The translations under genes and the position numbers were made by a program. A stretch of 17,522 nt of DNA from Sulfurimonadaceae bacterium (GTDB taxonomy: Bacteria > Campylobacterota > Campylobacteria > Campylobacterales > Sulfurimonadaceae). The stretch is taken from positions 1 through 17,522 of the forward strand of contig JBFFUI010000041.1 of assembly GCA_041571435.1 (NCBI GenBank). The letters run 5' to 3'. Positions 10,044-15,711 of this stretch are shown here, in pieces. The notes beneath the pieces were generated by a model. It made no database searches, was not told where the DNA came from, and saw only the letters and a program-made list of their open reading frames with translations. Positions within the stretch are counted from its first letter, which is position 1. Each line of letters opens with the position of its first letter.

Positions 10044-10601
10044 TTAGTTGTCTATAAAATAGCGGATCGAAGCAAAGCCGTAAGCACCGCTTTTTTCAAC
10101 CGCTTTTACCTGCTCCGGCGTAGTGATCCCGCCCAGTGCGATAATAGGTAAGCTTATTTTATCCACTATATTCTGTAAATCCTCTAAACCCTTGGGTTTG
10201 CCCTTGTCTGGCGTACTGAAGATGGGGCTGTACGTGACAGCATCGGCCCCTCTTCTCTGCGCTTCGAGGATCTCCGCTTCACTGTGACAGGAGATGACCA
10301 CAAAAAGGCCCAGTCCTTTTGCTTTTTCTATGTCATCAAACTGCAATGATGTCAAGTGCACACCATCGGCCTTCAGTTTTGCGGCCAGTTGAACATCGCC
10401 ATGAAGCATCGTTTTTGTATTTGCTGATTGCGAGCAGATGGCTATGAACTGTTCTGCCGTTTTTGCATAAGACGGGTTGTTTTTGTCCCGATACAAAGTA
10501 AAGTCGGGACAATGTCTCAAGAGTGTCGCGCTCAGCGTGTCGCGGAATTCAGAATTGAGAGAACCGTAATACTTGGGATCTGTAATCAGATAGGACTTCA
10601 T
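10044..10601 (-). CDS. thiE: Thiamine phosphate synthase (TMP-TENI) family protein
   Basis: YLITD, LYRDK, ADGVHL, SCHS, GADAVTYSPIFSTPDK and PIIALGGI. Could be a ThiE paralogue or TenI-like protein. Confidence 0.85.
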   Translation of the reverse strand: MKSYLITDPKYYGSLNSEFRDTLSATLLRHCPDFTLYRDKNNPSYAKTAEQFIAICSQSANTKTMLHGDVQLAAKLKADGVHLTSLQFDDIEKAKGLGLFVVISCHSEAEILEAQRRGADAVTYSPIFSTPDKGKPKGLEDLQNIVDKISLPIIALGGITTPEQVKAVEKSGAYGFASIRYFIDN

Positions 10602-10604
10602 AAA

Positions 10605-10880
10605 CTAAGCAGCAACCTCTACCAACCCCGTGTCAACCAGTTCCTGCACAAAACGGCAGATATCAGCTTCTAGTTGTTCCGCATCGACTTCATAGGCCTC
10701 GAGCATAGAGTCATATGTTTCACGCAATGAACCGGATGCATTGAGATGCTGCCAGATCACAGCTGCCATCTCGTCAAGACCGAAGTACTCTTCTTTCACA
10801 GTATCCAATATGACGACCTCTTCATCGATCTTCTGGGCAAATACGGAATCGGAGATAATTACTTTGTCATCTAACGTCAT
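10605..10880 (-). CDS. Stand-alone PqqD family protein / RiPP recognition element (lasso B1-like)
   Basis: 91 aa with the pattern VILD....YFGLDE.AA.IW..L.....L......L..YEVD..QLE.DI..F..EL...GLV typical of PqqD/RRE proteins; AGGAG RBS. Confidence 0.92.
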   Translation of the reverse strand: MTLDDKVIISDSVFAQKIDEEVVILDTVKEEYFGLDEMAAVIWQHLNASGSLRETYDSMLEAYEVDAEQLEADICRFVQELVDTGLVEVAA

Positions 10881-10962
10881 TTACATCTTTCTCCTGTTTC
10901 CTGAGCAGATCGGAAAAGATCGATCTTTGCTGTTACAAGGGCCTATCCACTCTATGTTTAGC

Positions 10963-11736
10963 TTAAAACGACGGCGGTAGCAATTTACTGTTACTGTTTT
11001 GAGGGCGTTGCATGAGTTCTGAGGCTTTGGTACCGACGAATGCAGCTGTTTTAGCTGCACTCGGTGCCGCTAACGGGAGGTAGTCCTCATCCGTCACCAC
11101 ACCCAATACCCAGCGGAAAGTCCGCGTATGCAGACCATCCATCTTCAGACCTGCTGTCGGAAGCTGGTCTGCTGTGTAAGTCGTATGGTTGTCAATATCA
11201 ACCAGGACCAGGGCCTCTTTCAAGGCTGGGTTAGCCTCTTGTACCTTATAATCAATCCCGCCATATTCTGTTTCGAGATAAGTCACGCCGAAAGCGCCGT
11301 CAAGAGTGATCGTGAGTGGCGCATTTGAAAGGTCGATCGAATGCTGATTTTTAACCTGAAATATCCAGCTTTTTTTCGTCGTGTCACTTCCGTCCCAACT
11401 ACGATAATCACTAAAGTAATCACCATTAGCCCCTGCCCACGCTGTTTTCGGGAAGACCACCTGAAGTATCGCCGTTCCGTAGCCTGGGATGTCGCTTGGG
11501 TCTTTATCGTCCTGGCTTTGCAACAACTCTCCGAATACCCCGGCCGAGGTATGTTTGTACACGGTCCCATCAGCAGCCGTAGCATAAACACCACTCTTCA
11601 TATACCAGCCGGCCGGCTGGTATGGCATTGCAAGTTCGCTTGTACTGCTTCCATCACTGTTGCTACAGCCTGACATACCGGTCAATACTGCCAGAACCAA
11701 AGAGAAAAATAAAGTATGTTTTAACGTTTGCATCAT
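10963..11736 (-). CDS. Hypothetical lipoprotein
   Basis: Signal peptide ending in lipobox-like MSG/C24, followed by a Ser-rich tether (SNSDGSSTS), a beta-rich body and an Ala/Pro-rich tail. The AGGAG RBS overlaps the upstream TAG stop. Confidence 0.8.
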   Translation of the reverse strand: MMQTLKHTLFFSLVLAVLTGMSGCSNSDGSSTSELAMPYQPAGWYMKSGVYATAADGTVYKHTSAGVFGELLQSQDDKDPSDIPGYGTAILQVVFPKTAWAGANGDYFSDYRSWDGSDTTKKSWIFQVKNQHSIDLSNAPLTITLDGAFGVTYLETEYGGIDYKVQEANPALKEALVLVDIDNHTTYTADQLPTAGLKMDGLHTRTFRWVLGVVTDEDYLPLAAPSAAKTAAFVGTKASELMQRPQNSNSKLLPPSF

Positions 11737-11742
11737 CTTCTC

Positions 11743-13530
11743 CTACTTTTCATATGGCAAAGCAAGTTCAACGCCTGTATTTGGTTCCAGGACTTTTACC
11801 CAGAACCCCTCGCCTGCTTTGATAGTATCCCCTAAGCCCGGGGCCGCAGCACTAACTGCTCTATAGGGTTGACCTGTCTGTGTTGCGTCATAGACATAAC
11901 CCGTTGCATTCTGCAAGACCGTTGCTGCTGCAGGGCTGTTCATAGGTGTTACTCCGCTTGGTGACCCCACATAAATGACAATATTGCCCCATTGAAATGA
12001 ACGGGGCAGATTATTGGAGACAAGGACCGTCGCATTACCGTCGGGTAGCGCAACAATCGACTGTGTCCCTACACCCACTGGTTTCGACAAATTAGCATCT
12101 GTTGCCGTGCGTGTCGGACTGATAGAACTATCAACCCGTGTCGTAACATTGCGGTCGGAAATGATCCAATACCCTTTTCCCTGCGTCACTGGGCTGCTTG
12201 CATTTAGTTCGACGTATGATGCACTCGTCGTTCCATACGTACTGTTTTGTTCGTAGACGACCCAGTTTGTTCCGTATGTTCCCAAATCGTCACCTGTCGC
12301 AGTAGAGCCATTGGTGTTGAATGCCTGCGATACCGTCGTACCAGCTGGGATAGCACAAGGGATCCCGACCATCGCCCATTCGTATGCCGTAAGGTCATAT
12401 CCTGATCCGCAAGGCAGCTCATAGATATATGCGGGTTGCGTTACACTGTGCTTCACCGCCAGCGTATCTTTGTATAAGGATATATCCTCAGCTGTCTGAG
12501 TTACATCTACAGTTGAAGGTATGATTGCTGTCGGATTTACATCGCTATCAAGTTTAGAAACAAGTTCAACCTTGTTCCCAAGATAGCCGATGGCATTGAC
12601 ACCGTCGCTGATAGAGACATCTGCTCCATTCGTCCCGTTGAACGTTTTAGAGTAGGACCAGGTACCGTTCAAAGTGTATACATCCGTATTGGTTCCGGAA
12701 AGGATGATGGTAGCACTATCCATAGCCACTTGCTGTCCGGCTTGACCACCGGCAGTCATACCCGGTGCAATGCCATCCAATGTCGCCGTCGTACCGTCAA
12801 AGTCATACAGATAACCCGCGCCCAGGTTACTGGAATAGCCGGGTGCACCAACCAGTATTTTGCTACCTGCACCTGTTACAGCTGCACCGAACCGATCATT
12901 TGTACTTGTTCCGTCTATCGTAGCCAAAGTTGGATAGACTTTGCTCCTTGCGGTCACATTCCAGTCATAAATATAGACCTTGCCTTCGTTATTAGTACCG
13001 GTAACATCGTAATAAGGCGCTCCAACGACCAGATAGTCGCCCCGGATGGACAAGGTTTCGCCAAATCCCGATAAAGCCTGATTATCTTTTGTGGCCGCCG
13101 GGGTCGCCGCAACCACTTGCTCGTTTTTAACTACCCACGCTACCCCATCGTATTCATATGTTGTATAGGCACCAACATCTTTGTCGCTACCGTCATCAAA
13201 ATTCAAAAGACCGACAGCCAGTTTTGTTCCGGACAGTGATACGGAAACACCAAACCCTTTGTTTCCGCTGCAGTTTCCTTTTGCACTACCCAACGTCTGT
13301 GCAAACCCCCATGACATTGTCGAATAGTCATATTTATACATTGTTACATAACACGAGGAAGTGTTTGCTGGATCAAAAGCCCCCACTGCGACCCACTCCC
13401 CGCTGATAGCGACTGATGAACCACCATCCGTAGGGCTCAGATCATGGAGTAAGGTCGATTCAGTATATGTAATACCGCCATACAAAGCCGTCGATAGCAG
13501 CAATGTCATCAGGCTATTTCTGAAAATCAT
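11743..13530 (-). CDS. Secreted FG-GAP repeat (7-bladed beta-propeller) protein with C-terminal beta-rich domain
   Basis: Sec-type signal (MIFRNSLMTLLLSTALYG). Repeats GSSVAISGEWVAVGA, FGVSVSLSGTKLAVG, FGETLSIRGDYLVVGAP and FGAAVTGAGSKILVGAP, plus three degenerate ones. AGAGGA RBS. Confidence 0.88.
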   Translation of the reverse strand: MIFRNSLMTLLLSTALYGGITYTESTLLHDLSPTDGGSSVAISGEWVAVGAFDPANTSSCYVTMYKYDYSTMSWGFAQTLGSAKGNCSGNKGFGVSVSLSGTKLAVGLLNFDDGSDKDVGAYTTYEYDGVAWVVKNEQVVAATPAATKDNQALSGFGETLSIRGDYLVVGAPYYDVTGTNNEGKVYIYDWNVTARSKVYPTLATIDGTSTNDRFGAAVTGAGSKILVGAPGYSSNLGAGYLYDFDGTTATLDGIAPGMTAGGQAGQQVAMDSATIILSGTNTDVYTLNGTWSYSKTFNGTNGADVSISDGVNAIGYLGNKVELVSKLDSDVNPTAIIPSTVDVTQTAEDISLYKDTLAVKHSVTQPAYIYELPCGSGYDLTAYEWAMVGIPCAIPAGTTVSQAFNTNGSTATGDDLGTYGTNWVVYEQNSTYGTTSASYVELNASSPVTQGKGYWIISDRNVTTRVDSSISPTRTATDANLSKPVGVGTQSIVALPDGNATVLVSNNLPRSFQWGNIVIYVGSPSGVTPMNSPAAATVLQNATGYVYDATQTGQPYRAVSAAAPGLGDTIKAGEGFWVKVLEPNTGVELALPYEK

Positions 13531-13579
13531 GATTTTCGTCCTCTTATCTTTTTACTACTCGGGTACACTTCGCGCTGTC

Positions 13580-13777
13580 TCAAAACTGAGGTGCACTTGG
13601 AGGCGTCTCAAAACTATGGGCATCGCTAGCCTTTGTCAAGGCCCCCAGTGCGATCAATGTCGGGGCGACGTAGGCTGCTTTTTTTATAAATGCACGTCTT
13701 GCATCCTTCTGTTGTTTCTCTACTTCTTCAGCTTTTTTAATTGTATTATTGTTTTTATTCTCAAAAATTTTATGCAT
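13580..13777 (-). CDS. Putative RiPP-like precursor peptide (65 aa) with twin-arginine motif and RRE-binding-type leader motif
   Basis: RRAFIK (res 27-32), YVAPTLIALG (res 36-45) and a short Ser/Thr/Pro-rich C-terminus. Has its own promoter and AGGT RBS, and lies in a cassette with PqqD and an HPrK-like kinase. Confidence 0.8.
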   Translation of the reverse strand: MHKIFENKNNNTIKKAEEVEKQQKDARRAFIKKAAYVAPTLIALGALTKASDAHSFETPPSAPQF

Positions 13778-13809
13778 ATTTACCTACTACTTTAAGCTTA
13801 TGTATGCTT

Positions 13810-13818
13810 ATTATATCA
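13810..13818 (-). promoter_or_regulatory. Extended -10 promoter (TGaTATAAT) for the precursor peptide gene
   Basis: The minus strand reads TGATATAAT, a perfect TGnTATAAT, about 33 nt upstream of ATG 13777 in an AT-rich intergenic region. Confidence 0.7.
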
Positions 13819-13858
13819 CTTTAGCTATAAGTATTTTATAATATTAATTTTTATTCAG

Positions 13859-14755
13859 CTAAAGACAGGCTTTTCGCCTGGCACTTGTGTGGGCCACAAT
13901 TGCACAGTGAACCTCTTGCAACCGCATTTTATCCCATGGTACCGTCACCCTGAAAACGGGGATTTTTGTGGCCATTTCACTCACTGTTTTAAAACGGTAC
14001 GCCTTAAAAAAATCGAAATTGATAAAACTGCTGAAATGAAATGCTGTAAACTTTTCAATACCGCTGACCTCTTCAATAGCGACTGCAGCATCAGATTCTG
14101 CTCTCTCTAACAGATAGACTGCTTTAAGTGGCTTTGGACCTTTAGTAACATTTGTTATTTTATGGCCCAGGCATTCTGCTTCACGAAACGGCCTGTGATA
14201 AGGATAGGAAGGGACAGCCATATACTGTTGGTCATCTCTGTAAACGCCAAGCGTATCATCCGACAACATCGTGTGCCCCTGCTGGATAAAAAAATCCGTC
14301 AAGGTTGATTTTCCGCCAAACGACTCCGCCGAAAAGATGATCGGCTCTCCATTGACTTCAACAGCCCCAACATGCAAAATATCATAACGTTTTTCCAATG
14401 TCAGCACCATAGGTAATATAGTGTGCAAGAACCAAAACTGCAGTAGTTCAGCTGAAAATGACTTTTGTGGAAAATACTCTATGGTGTGATCACCACATTG
14501 CCATATCACATACATCACGTCTTGAATATCGACTCCCCAGCTGCAACCCTGCTGGCAATCAGCATACGCTTTTTCTGCACAATACATCACTTGTCGTCCG
14601 GAGAGAGGCTTGTATTCAGATCGTACTCTTAACTTTTTAAACGCAGAAGGATCAACACTTTTGGCTACCGTGAAATTTTCTTTACTAGAATCGTATATCT
14701 TATCATTCAATGATGGCTCATCTTGGAAATTAATGTTGAAGTCAAACGCGATCAT
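13859..14755 (-). CDS. HPr kinase-related (RiPP/lasso-cluster type) Ser/Thr kinase
   Basis: LH(128)VGAV, Walker A AESFGGK(149)ST, LSDD(166-167), PLKAVYLLER and IPVFRVTVP, as in HPrK-like kinases of paeninodin-type clusters. Lacks a recognisable canonical HPrK N-terminal domain. Confidence 0.85.
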   Translation of the reverse strand: MIAFDFNINFQDEPSLNDKIYDSSKENFTVAKSVDPSAFKKLRVRSEYKPLSGRQVMYCAEKAYADCQQGCSWGVDIQDVMYVIWQCGDHTIEYFPQKSFSAELLQFWFLHTILPMVLTLEKRYDILHVGAVEVNGEPIIFSAESFGGKSTLTDFFIQQGHTMLSDDTLGVYRDDQQYMAVPSYPYHRPFREAECLGHKITNVTKGPKPLKAVYLLERAESDAAVAIEEVSGIEKFTAFHFSSFINFDFFKAYRFKTVSEMATKIPVFRVTVPWDKMRLQEVHCAIVAHTSARRKACL

Positions 14756-14761
14756 TGACGG

Positions 14762-15025
14762 TTACTTTTGGAGGGCGTCGCGGATCTCTTGAAGAAGCTG
14801 TGTCTGTTTTTTCGACTCATCCAACCGTTCTCTGTAACTGAGCATAGTCTCAAGCAAAAGAACAAGAAAAAGACCGAAGATGATAAAGATAATGGAGAAA
14901 AAGAGTGCCGTACTGACACCCATAAAGAGAAATATCTTAAAGATAATAATAGCACCCAGGACAATAAATGTCCATGAGATGCCAAGAAGGAAGCTGGTGA
15001 TCTTGTCGAAAACGCTTCGCTTCAT
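14762..15025 (-). CDS. Small integral membrane protein downstream of atpB (87 aa)
   Basis: The likely start is ATG 15025 (MKRSVFDKITSFLLG...), 8 nt after the atpB stop. Two TM helices and a coiled-coil C-terminus. The longer 131-aa call overlaps atpB. Confidence 0.8.
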   Translation of the reverse strand: MKRSVFDKITSFLLGISWTFIVLGAIIIFKIFLFMGVSTALFFSIIFIIFGLFLVLLLETMLSYRERLDESKKQTQLLQEIRDALQK

Positions 15026-15033
15026 AAAAAAGT

Positions 15034-15711
15034 TTAGTGATCGTCCGCGATCTGAACTGCACCGCCAAGGTAGACGTATGTCAGCATCATAAAGATAAAC
15101 GCTTGAAGAAGTGCCATGAATGAAAGAAGTGCGAATGGGATCATCGGCAGCAACCATGGTGCAAGCATCAGGATTACCATCAGGAACATATCGTCACCCT
15201 TAACGTTACCGAAAAGACGGAATGAAAGAGAGATAATACGAGAGATGTGCGAAACGATCTCGATCGGGAACATCAACCATGCCAACCACCAGACCGGCCC
15301 GAGGAAGTGTGCAAAGTACTTGATTACACCGTGACGACGGATACCTTCGAAGTTATAGTAGACAAAAACAACAAGCGCAAGTGCAAGTGTAAAGTCAAGG
15401 AAAGCTGACGGTGCTTCGAAACCCGGAACAATACCGATAAGGTTCGCGATAGCCACAAAAAGACCGATTGTCGCAACAAGCGGAAGGTAGCGGCGAGCTT
15501 CCTCTTTACCCATTACGTCTGTCCCCATAGCAAGTACACCGCCAAGGTATGCTTCTAAAAGGTTCTGTGTTCCTGTCGGAACAACCTTCATGTTGCTTGT
15601 TGCCAATTTAGCGATAACAAGTACGATAGCGGCTGTAAGCAGCATGTGCGTCATATAGATAAAAGCGTGATCATGGCTGATCAGACCAAAGAATGTAAAC
15701 AATTCACCCAT
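15034..15711 (-). CDS. atpB: F0F1 ATP synthase subunit a
   Basis: [40 protein letters not shown] (conserved Arg) and [14 protein letters not shown]. Confidence 0.97.

Follow-up and report, generated by a model that had tools for sequence, protein, structure and literature searches.

The precursor gene and its neighbours

The window analysed here, a stretch of 17,522 nucleotides from a member of the Sulfurimonadaceae, carries on its minus strand an open reading frame whose 65-residue translation is exactly the one described in the initial annotation (MHKIFENKNNNTIKKAEEVEKQQKDARRAFIKKAAYVAPTLIALGALTKASDAHSFETPPSAPQF). An AGG sequence is located 6-9 nt 5' of the ATG. Judged from sequence comparisons, this open reading frame is a genuine, conserved gene. 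It is flanked on one side by the gene for an HprK-like kinase, and on the other by genes for a secreted protein, a lipoprotein, and a lasso-type PqqD/RRE protein. The features of the locus are as follows, with positions numbered within the window.

10605..10880, minus strand: discrete PqqD-family RRE, 91 aa (Pfam PqqD, PF05402, 60.9 bits versus a cut-off of 23.4)
10963..11736, minus strand: lipoprotein of no known family, 257 aa (lipobox residues G23 and C24 invariant in nine homologues)
11743..13530, minus strand: secreted 595-aa protein with FG-GAP repeats (Pfam FG-GAP_2, 1.2e-15) and a conserved C-terminal domain (residues 371-595)
13580..13777, minus strand: putative precursor peptide gene, 65 aa plus stop, member of a conserved family
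13583..13612, minus strand: predicted mature decapeptide FETPPSAPQF, codons F56-F65 (P59, P60, S61, and P63 invariant in seven close homologues)
13613..13621, minus strand: predicted type I signal peptidase site A53-H54-S55 (-3 to -1), cut before F56, in the family register
13643..13672, minus strand: putative RRE-docking motif of the lasso type, YxxPx[LIV]xxxG, codons Y36-G45 (YVAPTLIALG), within the h-region
13679..13699, minus strand: twin-arginine motif RRAFIKK in the n-region, codons R27-K33, conserved in the family
13859..14755, minus strand: HprK-like kinase, 298 aa (sub-threshold matches to Hpr_kinase_C, ScmC, and HprK_rel_A)

The residues that had been singled out earlier, namely R27-R28-A-F-I-K-K, Y36/P39/L41/G45, and the TKASDAHS stretch, are all present where the initial annotation placed them. 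The uncharged h-region of the peptide spans 15 residues (A34-T48) and is followed by the basic residue K49 and then by A53-H-S55. Two cleavage sites had been proposed, and the one between S55 and F56 is favoured because A53-H-S55 falls in the register of the A-x-A site of the family. This choice leaves a predicted mature peptide of 10 aa, rather than the 10-12 aa suggested previously, with T58 and S61 as candidate phospho-acceptors.

The protein encoded by the neighbouring kinase gene is 37-43% identical to the kinases of canonical lasso peptide clusters, and its P-loop (G148, K149, S150, and T151 of GGKST) is invariant in 13 homologues. Its score with Hpr_kinase_C (21.7 bits) is below the cut-off of 33.3, and its match to an HprK structure in the PDB (8e-4) is limited to residues 127-185. 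A profile built from 14 homologues of the PqqD protein matches the lasso RREs TbiB1 (5v1u) at 6.8e-22 and TfuB1 at 2.5e-13, and the NCBIfam lasso_PqqD models match the window protein below their cut-offs.

The C-terminal domain of the secreted 595-aa protein recurs in proteins of two related loci (L054 and L058) that have different N-terminal domains, and a protein atlas placed the full protein with the FG-GAP_2 cluster alone (0.90). The lipoprotein co-occurs with the short-peptide type of precursor. Its structure model has a mean pLDDT of 66.2 and matched nothing in the PDB at E<=1e-3 when searched with Foldseek (the top rows, VioE, had a TM of ~0.11), and the best result of a wider structure search (Z 4.4) was to generic beta-sandwiches. 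A scan with Pfam and NCBIfam found no exporter or peptidase family among the window ORFs.

No stem-loop beyond chance expectation was found 3' of the peptide gene (z = -0.27), and a scan for promoters and terminators found nothing specific. The locus derives from marine metagenome assemblies. In whole or in part, it is present in seven DNA runs, four of which possibly represent the source sample, and in no RNA run listed.

Conservation and linkage of the peptide family

The peptide belongs to a large family of short peptides that has not been described before. When 1.84 billion representatives were searched with a profile, there were 509 matches at E<=1e-3, which are cluster representatives at 50% identity, and 53 matches at E<=1e-10. 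Members occur in Campylobacterota, in Chromatiales, and in one betaproteobacterial MAG, and all 150 members listed are 46-141 aa in length. Pfam DUF5972 gives weak matches (E 0.018-0.2) to the AYVAPTLIALG stretch.

In seven close homologues, the invariant residues are R27, R28, F30, I31, K32, K33, A34, A35, Y36, V37, A38, P39, T40, L41, A43, L44, G45, L47, D52, A53, P59, P60, S61, and P63. Among 14 diverged members these are reduced to R27, R28, K32, K33, Y36, P39, L44, and G45. The twin arginines are present in 149 of the 150 members examined, and the one other member carries KR instead. Counts within these 149 sequences partly reflect selection, as the profile used for ranking includes RR and YxxP among its own positions: serine precedes the arginines in 71, F occupies +3 in 138, L, I, or M occupies +4 in 143, and K is found at +5 in 143 and at +6 in 139. 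The docking block is comparably maintained (Y in 138, P in 138, L/I/V in 140, and the G of LG in 135). Thus, the joint conservation of RRxF and YxxPxL that the initial annotation had put forward as a check is indeed seen in homologous short ORFs.

Beyond the docking block, the uncharged run has a median length of 15 residues and reaches at least 13 in 125 of the 149 members, and a basic residue is present at +22 in 73. A small-x-small site 28 residues past the first arginine is found in 128 members (exact A-x-A in 84), and in this cleavage register proline occupies -6 in 124, alanine -3 in 93, and alanine -1 in 127.

The predicted mature segments have a median length of 22 aa and are at most 15 aa long in 40 of the 149. 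A passenger of 10 aa is far below typical Tat cargo size, which is a point against the Tat reading. We agree with the earlier remark that so small a passenger is odd for Tat, but short passengers are the norm in this family. The C-terminal PPS is invariant in the seven close homologues, and tails are hypervariable across the wider family. The serine of PPS is replaced by asparagine in one close relative (L015), and the acceptor site is therefore uncertain.

Genomic linkage was assessed in 401 genomes of the phylum. The kinase is encoded in only 15 of these, including all nine with a strong match to the peptide, and no such match is found in the 386 genomes that lack the kinase. Within this sample, the kinase is located no more than ~1 kb from 11 of 13 peptide genes. 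In the non-adjacent cases, both kinase and PqqD are encoded elsewhere in the same genome (5/5).

Linkage to PqqD is looser than linkage to the kinase. No PqqD gene was found within ~9 kb at loci 2 and 3 of genome G103 or at the locus of G342, and in G201, G029, and G427 it is located on other contigs. One peptide gene in G201 has neither the kinase nor PqqD inside 9 kb. In the betaproteobacterial MAG, three peptide genes are on contigs apart from the kinase-PqqD pair.

A search for related loci with the single pattern FIKKAAYV, derived from the seven-row alignment, yielded six loci and thus a narrow sample. In four compact clusters comprising peptide, kinase, and PqqD genes (L021, L029, L057, and L061), no other candidate precursor can be seen. 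The related clusters L021, L057, and L060 encode an NTP_transf_5 nucleotidyltransferase, which is absent from the cluster in the window.

Relationship to lasso peptide clusters

Two sister genomes (G010 and G002) carry, in the slot between atpB and thiE/gatB, genes for an ABC exporter, B2, kinase, precursor, cyclase, and PqqD. This arrangement is a canonical kinase-type lasso cluster at the same chromosomal position. The window cluster resembles kinase-type (paeninodin-like, phosphorylated) lasso clusters both in its homologous kinase and PqqD genes and in the slot that it occupies. Another related locus (L054) has an RR module adjoining a complete lasso cluster, with a single PqqD found. The ABC exporter gene there directly follows the RR-type kinase gene, though it is part of the adjoining lasso cluster.

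The resemblance extends to the leaders. Lasso precursors from L016, L017, and L054 are collinear with the window leader from KK onward, with K33, Y36, P39, and L41 invariant, such that both share KKxYxxPxL...G. The lasso leader pattern YxxPxLx3Gx5Tx is matched by Y36, P39, L41, G45, and S51 (Thr in homologues), which corresponds to the register Y(-17), P(-14), L(-12), G(-8), and [T/S](-2) if the peptide is read as a lasso precursor. However, the lasso precursors start exactly at KK, whereas the RR family has an N-terminal extension of ~30 aa that carries RRxF. The lasso precursors also have Lys within the segment that lacks charged residues in RR peptides, and the Thr of the pattern is lost in distant members of the RR family.

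The window genome, which is scored as 100% complete, has no match to the B2 leader peptidase (NF033537), nor is there one among the window ORFs. Its best match to an Asn synthase (C18) scores 494 bits with asn_synth_AEB (cut-off 267) and 572 with a PEP-CTERM amidotransferase model. These scores identify C18 as a true AsnB type and not a lasso cyclase, and a second Asn-synthase match (C1) was left out of this further scan. The tail also has no lasso-type core: such a core starts with G, A, S, or C and has an Asp or Glu at position 7, 8, or 9, whereas the Glu of the window peptide is at position 5 when read from A53 and at position 2 when read from F56, and most close homologues have a tail without any acidic residue. 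With neither B2 nor a cyclase in the genome and no acceptor residue in the tail, a lasso peptide was ruled out as the product.

A kinase tree of all 21 rows collected, in which 8 of 18 inner branches are open and one row (L030) is very long, requires three changes of the RR label and nests the lasso-type kinases among those of RR type. With three changes and mixed types, the tree did not show a single derivation of the RR type from a lasso cluster.

A prediction of the complex between the PqqD protein and leader residues 22-56 scored 0.55, compared with 0.02 for the best of three controls. The mark applied is reached by 116 of 157 solved complexes and by 2 of 215 mismatched pairs, but just 18 of the 157, together with both of the mismatches, reached it with a score of 0.60 or less. 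At least 93% of contacts are shared between runs, and the pLDDT of the partner is at least 59. Because similar RRE-leader complexes have been solved, likeness alone may explain this outcome, and the model lends weak support to binding.

A proposed twin-arginine signal overlaid on a putative RRE-docking leader

The sequence A-R-R-A-F-I-K in the window peptide conforms to the S/T-R-R-x-F-L-K pattern, and the peptide further has the architecture of a Tat signal, with an h-region of at least ~13 uncharged residues, a basic residue in the c-region, and a site of the A-x-A type. Across the family, the first basic pair is nearly always RR and the second nearly always KK, with Lys and not Arg, so the choice between arginine and lysine is position-specific. 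Such position-specific arginine is a prediction of twin-arginine recognition, and not of generic positive charge.

Weak matches of the leader profile elsewhere in the phylum are to the N-termini of NapA, SoxC, a PhsA-like molybdoenzyme, and a small FDH Tat target. Plausible Tat substrates of the window genome share the motif and have h-region hydropathies of 0.8-2.1, compared with 1.79 in the window peptide. TatC is encoded in the window genome (226 bits) and in all five of the other peptide-bearing genomes tested. HMMs for Tat signals, run with HMMER filters that discard many weak matches, gave little: the window peptide has no match to TIGR01409 even at E<=10, three of seven homologues match this model sub-threshold (14.2, 13.5, and 10.9 bits versus a cut-off of 16.7), and none of 14 members matches Pfam TAT_signal (PF10518).

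RiPP leaders and secretion signals are mostly regarded as distinct devices. In the family described here, a lasso-type RRE motif and a canonical twin-arginine signal appear to be superimposed in one leader, and the dedicated protease and exporter of related clusters appear to have been dropped. We give an even chance to the reading that this ORF specifies a precursor from which a linear, kinase-modified peptide of lasso ancestry is made, with a leader that serves two machines and with export via Tat. The dual Tat/RRE leader proposed in the initial annotation is in this respect partly supported, by the family-wide RRxFLK, by the collinearity of the YxxP block with lasso leaders, and by linkage to the kinase and PqqD.

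The steps that we infer would begin in the cytoplasm, where the discrete PqqD-type RRE would bind Y36-x-x-P39-x-L41 as lasso B1 proteins do with their leaders. The RRE would hand the peptide to the HprK-like kinase for phosphorylation of a Ser or Thr of the tail, with S61 in the conserved P-P-S-x-P as the best guess. The same leader would then act as a twin-arginine signal by way of its RRAFIKK n-region, its uncharged h-region, and the basic residue of its c-region, and the modified peptide would cross the inner membrane via TatABC. Housekeeping signal peptidase I would cut after A53-H-S55 to leave a (phospho)peptide of ~10 aa in the periplasm, where it would presumably encounter the secreted protein and the lipoprotein encoded with it. 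In this manner, the Tat signal and signal peptidase I would stand in for the dedicated exporter and leader peptidase of lasso and LPP (linear polyphosphorylated peptide) clusters.

Masking of the signal by the RRE until the peptide is fully modified, also proposed in the initial annotation, is plausible. A more specific version, in which the lasso-type RRE has been co-opted as a proofreading chaperone for Tat that holds the h-region until the kinase phosphorylates the tail and then releases the leader to TatBC, is a tentative idea that we consider somewhat unlikely. Known proofreading chaperones such as TorD, DmsD, and NapD bind Tat signal peptides before export of substrates that mature in the cytoplasm. 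These chaperones have other folds and serve large cofactor enzymes, whereas the proposed binder is a winged-helix RRE and its cargo is a peptide of 10-100 aa. If this version were true, the peptide would be a natural RiPP that leaves the cytoplasm via Tat, and its passenger of ~10 aa would rank among the smallest natural Tat cargos. The earlier suggestion that a partner protein hitchhikes through Tat on the peptide found no support, as the co-encoded secreted protein and lipoprotein have, by eye, Sec-like and lipobox N-termini of their own.

It is unlikely that the peptide is not exported by this leader at all, such that RRxFLKK-AAYxxPxLxxLG is simply an extended cytoplasmic leader for kinase and RRE, its likeness to Tat signals is coincidental, and the tail is released and exported by unlinked factors. 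The lasso leaders of sister clusters already have KKxYxxPxLxxΦ[G/N], the kinase is the most tightly linked gene, and sequence by itself cannot prove export. However, homologous kinases and RREs of lasso and LPP clusters work without RR, and a Pro(-6)/Ala(-3)/Ala(-1) site that is conserved at a constant spacing is not easily accounted for on this basis. The h-region has also been stripped of charges relative to lasso leaders, most clusters have neither protease nor exporter, and a secreted protein and a lipoprotein are co-conserved. Export through Sec, with an ordinary signal in which two arginines occur by chance and with RRE and kinase acting before post-translational translocation, is quite unlikely. 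A tripartite signal with a P-x-x-A-x-A site suits Sec as well as Tat, the Tat HMMs remain below threshold, and published RiPP precursors with signal peptides take the Sec or lipoprotein pathway (PMC12452194; PMC13056109). Nevertheless, chance arginines are difficult to reconcile with an RR that is nearly universal while the adjacent basic pair is nearly always KK, with the retention of S-R-R-x-F-L-K and of the basic +22 residue at the frequencies given above, or with profile cross-matches that are Tat substrates only.

Two other explanations accept less of the proposed leader function. The peptides could be a plain small Tat-secreted family in which YxxP is an h-region signature that PqqD does not use, with kinase and PqqD serving another substrate. 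PqqD is indeed sometimes non-adjacent, the three betaproteobacterial peptide genes are off the kinase-PqqD contig, and small Tat targets are known, such as TIGR02811 at L045. We regard this explanation as very unlikely given that Y and P each persist in 138 of 149 members despite lying in an h-region, which normally drifts freely, that the block is collinear with true lasso leaders, that the kinase accompanies the peptide in nine of nine genomes, and that the four compact clusters offer no other precursor. Cleavage is a prediction, and the window site is A-H-S rather than A-x-A, as might suit an uncleaved signal anchor, in which case the product would be a small bitopic protein of the inner membrane with its short Pro-rich tail exposed to the periplasm. 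An uncharged run of 15 residues, the family median, is short for a membrane span and contains Pro and Gly, and the -6/-3/-1 pattern is kept in most members, which makes such an anchor highly improbable.

Among published systems, the closest to the RR peptide family is that of the LPPs of Bacillota (Popov et al. 2026, Nat Commun; PMC13381572). LPPs are likewise linear peptides from clusters akin to kinase-type lasso clusters, with an HprK-like kinase, a discrete RRE, and a Y-x-x-P leader, all of which are present in the window cluster. They share with the RR family a conserved N-terminus and hypervariable C-termini (35-200 aa in LPPs), NTP_transf_5 genes in some clusters, co-location with lasso clusters (as at L054) and with capsule/EPS genes (as at L029), and leader removal by an enzyme of the signal peptidase type, which in the RR family is predicted. 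However, LPP clusters encode a dedicated SipW-like peptidase (LppS) that is presented by the RRE, and an MsbA-like exporter, neither of which is encoded in the window cluster, and the LPP leader motif YxxPxVLxHQxIxFETxxS has neither RR nor a hydrophobic h-region (PMC13381572). Many RR-family tails, by comparison, are just 10-16 aa long and co-occur with a secreted protein and a lipoprotein. In the LPP report these peptides are described as confined to Bacillota, and a search of PMC13381572 for the terms Tat, twin, signal peptide, Proteobacteria, and Gram-negative found none of them.

Housekeeping export and signal peptidase also replace a dedicated transporter and protease in bufferins and oxazolins, whose precursors have Sec signals (PMC12452194), and in lipidated MNIO peptides, whose precursors follow the lipoprotein pathway (PMC13056109). 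These peptides differ in having Sec or SPII signals and RRE-independent modifying enzymes, and Tat occurs in neither text. A literature search, with subscription journals and supplements outside its scope, found no natural RiPP precursor with a Tat signal. Use of Tat for lanthipeptide display has been speculated upon as engineering, with preliminary attempts reported as unsuccessful (PMC5686179). TIGR02811, the formate dehydrogenase region TAT target, which also occurs in this phylum (L045), resembles the window peptide in its length of ~66 aa, its twin-arginine signal, and its short passenger, but has no YxxP block, no linkage to kinase or PqqD, and a different conserved C-terminus.

If confirmed, the dual leader would be a natural case in which competition over a single short peptide coordinates cytoplasmic modification with Tat export. 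The class of linear phosphopeptides would then reach beyond Bacillota to Gram-negative bacteria, and the family would offer a test of how small Tat cargo can be. It would also supply a mining signature, SRRxFLKKxxYxxP beside an HprK-like kinase, by which hundreds of small genes that lack annotation could be recognized. The association of the peptides with a lectin-like secreted protein, with a lipoprotein and, in other genera, with capsule/EPS genes suggests a connection to the cell envelope, and one of the compact clusters (L029) neighbours genes for Wzz/BY-kinase, CpsB, and Poly_export.

A probable precursor gene in a kinase and PqqD gene row

Re-translation of 13580..13777 (minus strand) returned the same 65 residues that the initial annotation had given, and an AGG lies 6-9 nt 5' of the ATG. 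The gene belongs to a co-directional row, given here in order. Intergenic gaps are short, at 81, 49, 6, 82, and 3 nt.

14755..13859, minus: HprK-like kinase
13580..13777, minus: peptide precursor gene, 65 residues
13530..11743, minus: FG-GAP protein, 595 aa, signal-like N-terminus
11736..10963, minus: lipoprotein, 257 aa
10880..10605, minus: PqqD, 91 aa, the putative RiPP recognition element (RRE)
next after PqqD, minus: thiE-like and gatB genes

Window ORFs beyond this row included no look-alike of a lasso protease, cyclase, exporter, or peptidase. In the peptide, R27-R28-A-F-I-K-K is followed by an uncharged 15-residue stretch (A34-T48) that holds Y36, P39, L41, and G45, then by K49, A-S-D-A-H-S, and the tail FETPPSAPQF. 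We consider it very probable that this ORF truly encodes the precursor peptide of a kinase/RRE system.

A leader profile searched against 401 genomes of the phylum found 13 strong peptide genes in nine genomes, including the window's. A kinase lies within ~1 kb of 11 of the 13; another is cut off at a contig end, and that of genome G201 has neither a kinase nor a PqqD for 9 kb in either direction. The kinase occurs in 9/9 peptide genomes versus 15/401 overall (E<=1e-60), and none of the 386 kinase-less genomes has a strong peptide match, a co-occurrence that is not a formal test because the peptide genomes are mutually related. Linkage to PqqD is looser than to the kinase: it is in-cluster in the window's genome, G416, G315, G323, G391, and at one of three G103 loci, and at the remaining loci it is far away or on a separate contig, yet it is present in 5/5 genomes checked. 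These five include a betaproteobacterial MAG with three peptide genes (L032, L033, L034) on contigs apart from its sole kinase-PqqD pair. Beyond the clusters of the phylum sample, sets of peptide, kinase, and PqqD genes were also recovered with the exact pattern FIKKAAYV from one Arcobacter and two Chromatiales MAGs, reported as lying outside the phylum.

The clusters come in two flavors. Short P-P-S-D-P-x-W or G-P-S-G-P-P-x-G-W tails occur with the secreted protein and lipoprotein, and longer tails occur in compact peptide-kinase-PqqD sets, with or without NTP_transf_5, which often adjoin Wzz/BY-kinase, CpsB, and Poly_export genes. The number of peptide genes rises to two or three in some genomes. 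Locus L014 of G015 has them at 10434-10613 and 13927-14109, and the lipoprotein is duplicated in that genome. G103 (L058, L059, L060) has three kinases and a single strong PqqD, which suggests that one RRE serves several precursors in trans. At L010 (G021:C92), a kinase homolog is interrupted by an in-frame TAG, which could reflect either a misassembly or a pseudogene.

The leader as a candidate twin-arginine signal

A word-indexed search gave six homologs (54-80% identity), and in their alignment with the window peptide RRxFIKKAAYVAPTL-ALG-L, D52-A53, and P-P-S-x-P are invariant; the first 25 residues drift. In a set of 14 sequences, comprising close homologs and small ORFs beside kinase homologs in related genomes, R27, R28, K32, K33, Y36, P39, L44, and G45 are invariant. 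The initial annotation had looked to joint conservation of RRxF, YxxPxL, and a C-terminal PPS. RRxF and the YxxPxL part are kept in most of the family; PPS is invariant in the close homologs, and tails in the wider set vary from ~10 to ~100 residues.

Among 1.84 billion representatives, a profile of the 14 matched 509 proteins with an E-value of 1e-3 or lower, 53 of them at 1e-10 or lower, and the 150 matches listed are all 46-141 aa long. Residues were counted in 150 members, 149 of them from that list and the other the window peptide. RR occurs in all but one of the 150, which has KR in its place.

Residues numbered from the first Arg in the 149 members with RR; counts are partly circular, because members were ranked by a profile that holds the same motifs
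Position -1: S, 71/149
Position +3: F, 138/149
Position +4: L/I/M, 143/149
Position +5: K, 143/149
Position +6: K, 139/149
Position +9: Y, 138/149
Position +12: P, 138/149
Position +14: L/I/V, 140/149
Position +18: G, 135/149
Position +22: K/R, 73/149
Position +23: P, 124/149
Position +26: A, 93/149
Position +28: A, 127/149

Circularity notwithstanding, RR is the most invariant feature of the family, and Arg and Lys do not substitute for each other at its two basic pairs. To judge from its sequence, the consensus S-R-R-x-F-L-K-K, followed by the 15-residue uncharged stretch and (K/R)-P-x-x-A-x-A, reads as a textbook twin-arginine signal with a putative type I signal peptidase site. Taking +28 as the fixed register, residues -3 and -1 are small in 128/149 members and exactly A-x-A in 84/149. 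In the window this register falls on A53-H-S55; therefore, of the two cleavage sites first proposed, A-H-S/F, not S-D-A/H, is the one backed by the family. The predicted mature product is the decapeptide F56-F65. So small a passenger had been thought unusual, but within the family short passengers are normal: the median predicted mature length is 22 aa, with 40/149 members at <=15 aa and 69/149 at <=20 aa.

Weak matches to the leader profile in the 401 genomes lay at the N-terminal ends of classical Tat substrates: NapA, SoxC and a PhsA-like molybdoenzyme in two genomes each, and the small formate-dehydrogenase Tat target. Scanned for the motif, the window genome gave ~10 plausible Tat substrates with n-regions like that of the window peptide and h-region hydropathies of 0.8-2.1, versus 1.79 in the peptide. 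TatC was found in this genome and in 5/5 other peptide-bearing genomes checked. The curated Tat-signal HMMs count against this reading: TIGR01409 gave zero match for the window peptide and placed 3/7 relatives at 10.9-14.2 bits, below its 16.7 cut-off, and PF10518 matched none of 14 members. On balance, the window peptide is probably exported with a cleaved signal.

Tail composition varies. The 133-aa member at L057 8641-9042 (G391) has two copies of a ~23-residue unit around N-N-G-F-G-N-G-D-Q-x-A-P-G-N-S and is a candidate multi-core precursor; 5/149 representatives among the matches listed have a similar unit. The three betaproteobacterial paralogs have Lys/Pro/Glu-rich tails with K-P-K-E-K repeats.

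Proposed RRE docking and comparison with lasso clusters

The window PqqD scores well over the Pfam threshold. Against solved structures, a profile of 14 PqqD homologs ranked the lasso RRE TbiB1 first (6.8e-22), then two 2026 PqqD-family chaperone entries, then TfuB1. The strongest evidence for RRE docking is the comparison with sister genomes G010 and G002, where the slot that holds the window's cluster, between atpB and thiE/gatB, is occupied by a canonical kinase-type lasso cluster. This comprises an ABC exporter; the lasso leader peptidase B2 (NF033537, 6e-27 and 2e-27, over cut-off); a kinase with ~37-45% identity to the window's; a 39-aa precursor directly 3' of the kinase; an Asn-synthetase-like cyclase (lass_lactam_cya, 1.9e-91 and 2.7e-101, both under the 525-bit cut-off); and a PqqD with 43-47% identity to the window's.

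The lasso precursors of G010, G002, and locus L054 (G323) align collinearly with the twin-arginine (RR) peptides, sharing K33, Y36, P39, and L41; their first residues are exactly K-K, and their leader closes with T-Q. The RR peptides differ from these lasso precursors in a ~30-residue additional N-terminal extension with RRxF, in the A-x-A site, and in lacking charged residues between KK and the c-region, where the lasso leaders carry Lys. At L054, an RR module (secreted protein, lipoprotein, peptide, and kinase) directly adjoins a full lasso cluster that includes a kinase of its own, and just one PqqD was found at the locus. G315, a congener of G323, has the RR module and PqqD without lasso genes.

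Weak support comes from a predicted complex between residues 22-56 of the leader and the window's PqqD, whose score of 0.55 (best of three controls, 0.02) may reflect likeness only, because similar RRE-leader complexes are already solved. The mark applied was reached by 116/157 solved complexes and 2/215 mismatches, but at <=0.60 by only 18/157 and by both mismatches; contact agreement between runs was at least 93%, and partner pLDDT at least 59.

The window peptide itself is ruled out as a lasso peptide: B2 is absent from a genome scored 100% complete, the best Asn-synthase match there is a true AsnB/PEP-CTERM amidotransferase, and positions 7-9 of the tail hold no acidic residue. A single origin of the RR type was not recovered in the kinase tree; we therefore claim homology of parts, not a direction of evolution. 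In the full dual-use model, the RRE would dock on the leader, and the modified peptide would then be exported via Tat. Judged on sequence comparison, we give this sequence of steps an even chance.

The slot is variable within the genus and spans ~10600-14760 in the window, from a gene for a small membrane protein to thiE. G010 and G002 (L016, L017) have a lasso cluster there, whereas G011, G015, G005, and the window have an RR-peptide cluster. The small two-span membrane-protein gene always lies between atpB and this slot. In the window it is listed as a 131-aa ORF (14762-15157) overlapping the atpB end, whose start is probably an internal Met because relatives conserve only the last ~87 residues.

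The closest known system and the partner proteins

The linear polyphosphorylated peptides (LPP) of Bacillota combine an HprK-like kinase, a discrete RRE, and a YxxP leader with variable tails of 35-200 aa, near an NTP transferase and a capsule locus, and co-localize with paeninodin-like lasso clusters (Popov et al. 2026, PMC13381572). A SipW-like signal peptidase, dedicated to the system and presented by the RRE, removes the LPP leader, and the exporter is MsbA-like. The RR-peptide family follows this logic closely. However, LPP are stated in that paper to be Bacillota-restricted, whereas the RR peptides occur in Gram-negative lineages. The window cluster lacks the dedicated peptidase and exporter of LPP, in place of which its leader would supply a full twin-arginine signal and signal peptidase I site. 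The words Tat, twin, signal peptide, Proteobacteria, and Gram-negative do not appear in the LPP paper. RiPP precursors that carry a Sec or a lipoprotein signal have been described (PMC12452194, PMC13056109); no natural Tat-signal RiPP precursor was found in the open-access article texts searched.

The 257-aa lipoprotein (10963-11736) is co-conserved with short-tail peptides. It matched no family, and its all-beta model (mean pLDDT 66) gave no convincing fold match (best Z 4.4). The secreted protein shares a C-terminal domain of ~225 aa (residues 371-595; window 11743-12420), which matched no Pfam family, with the proteins at L054 6577-8772 and L058 6157-8571 (BLASTP 2e-12 and 2e-15). Its N-terminal part varies, being FG-GAP in the window, Laminin_G_3/Pentaxin at L054, and a proprotein-convertase P-domain at L058.
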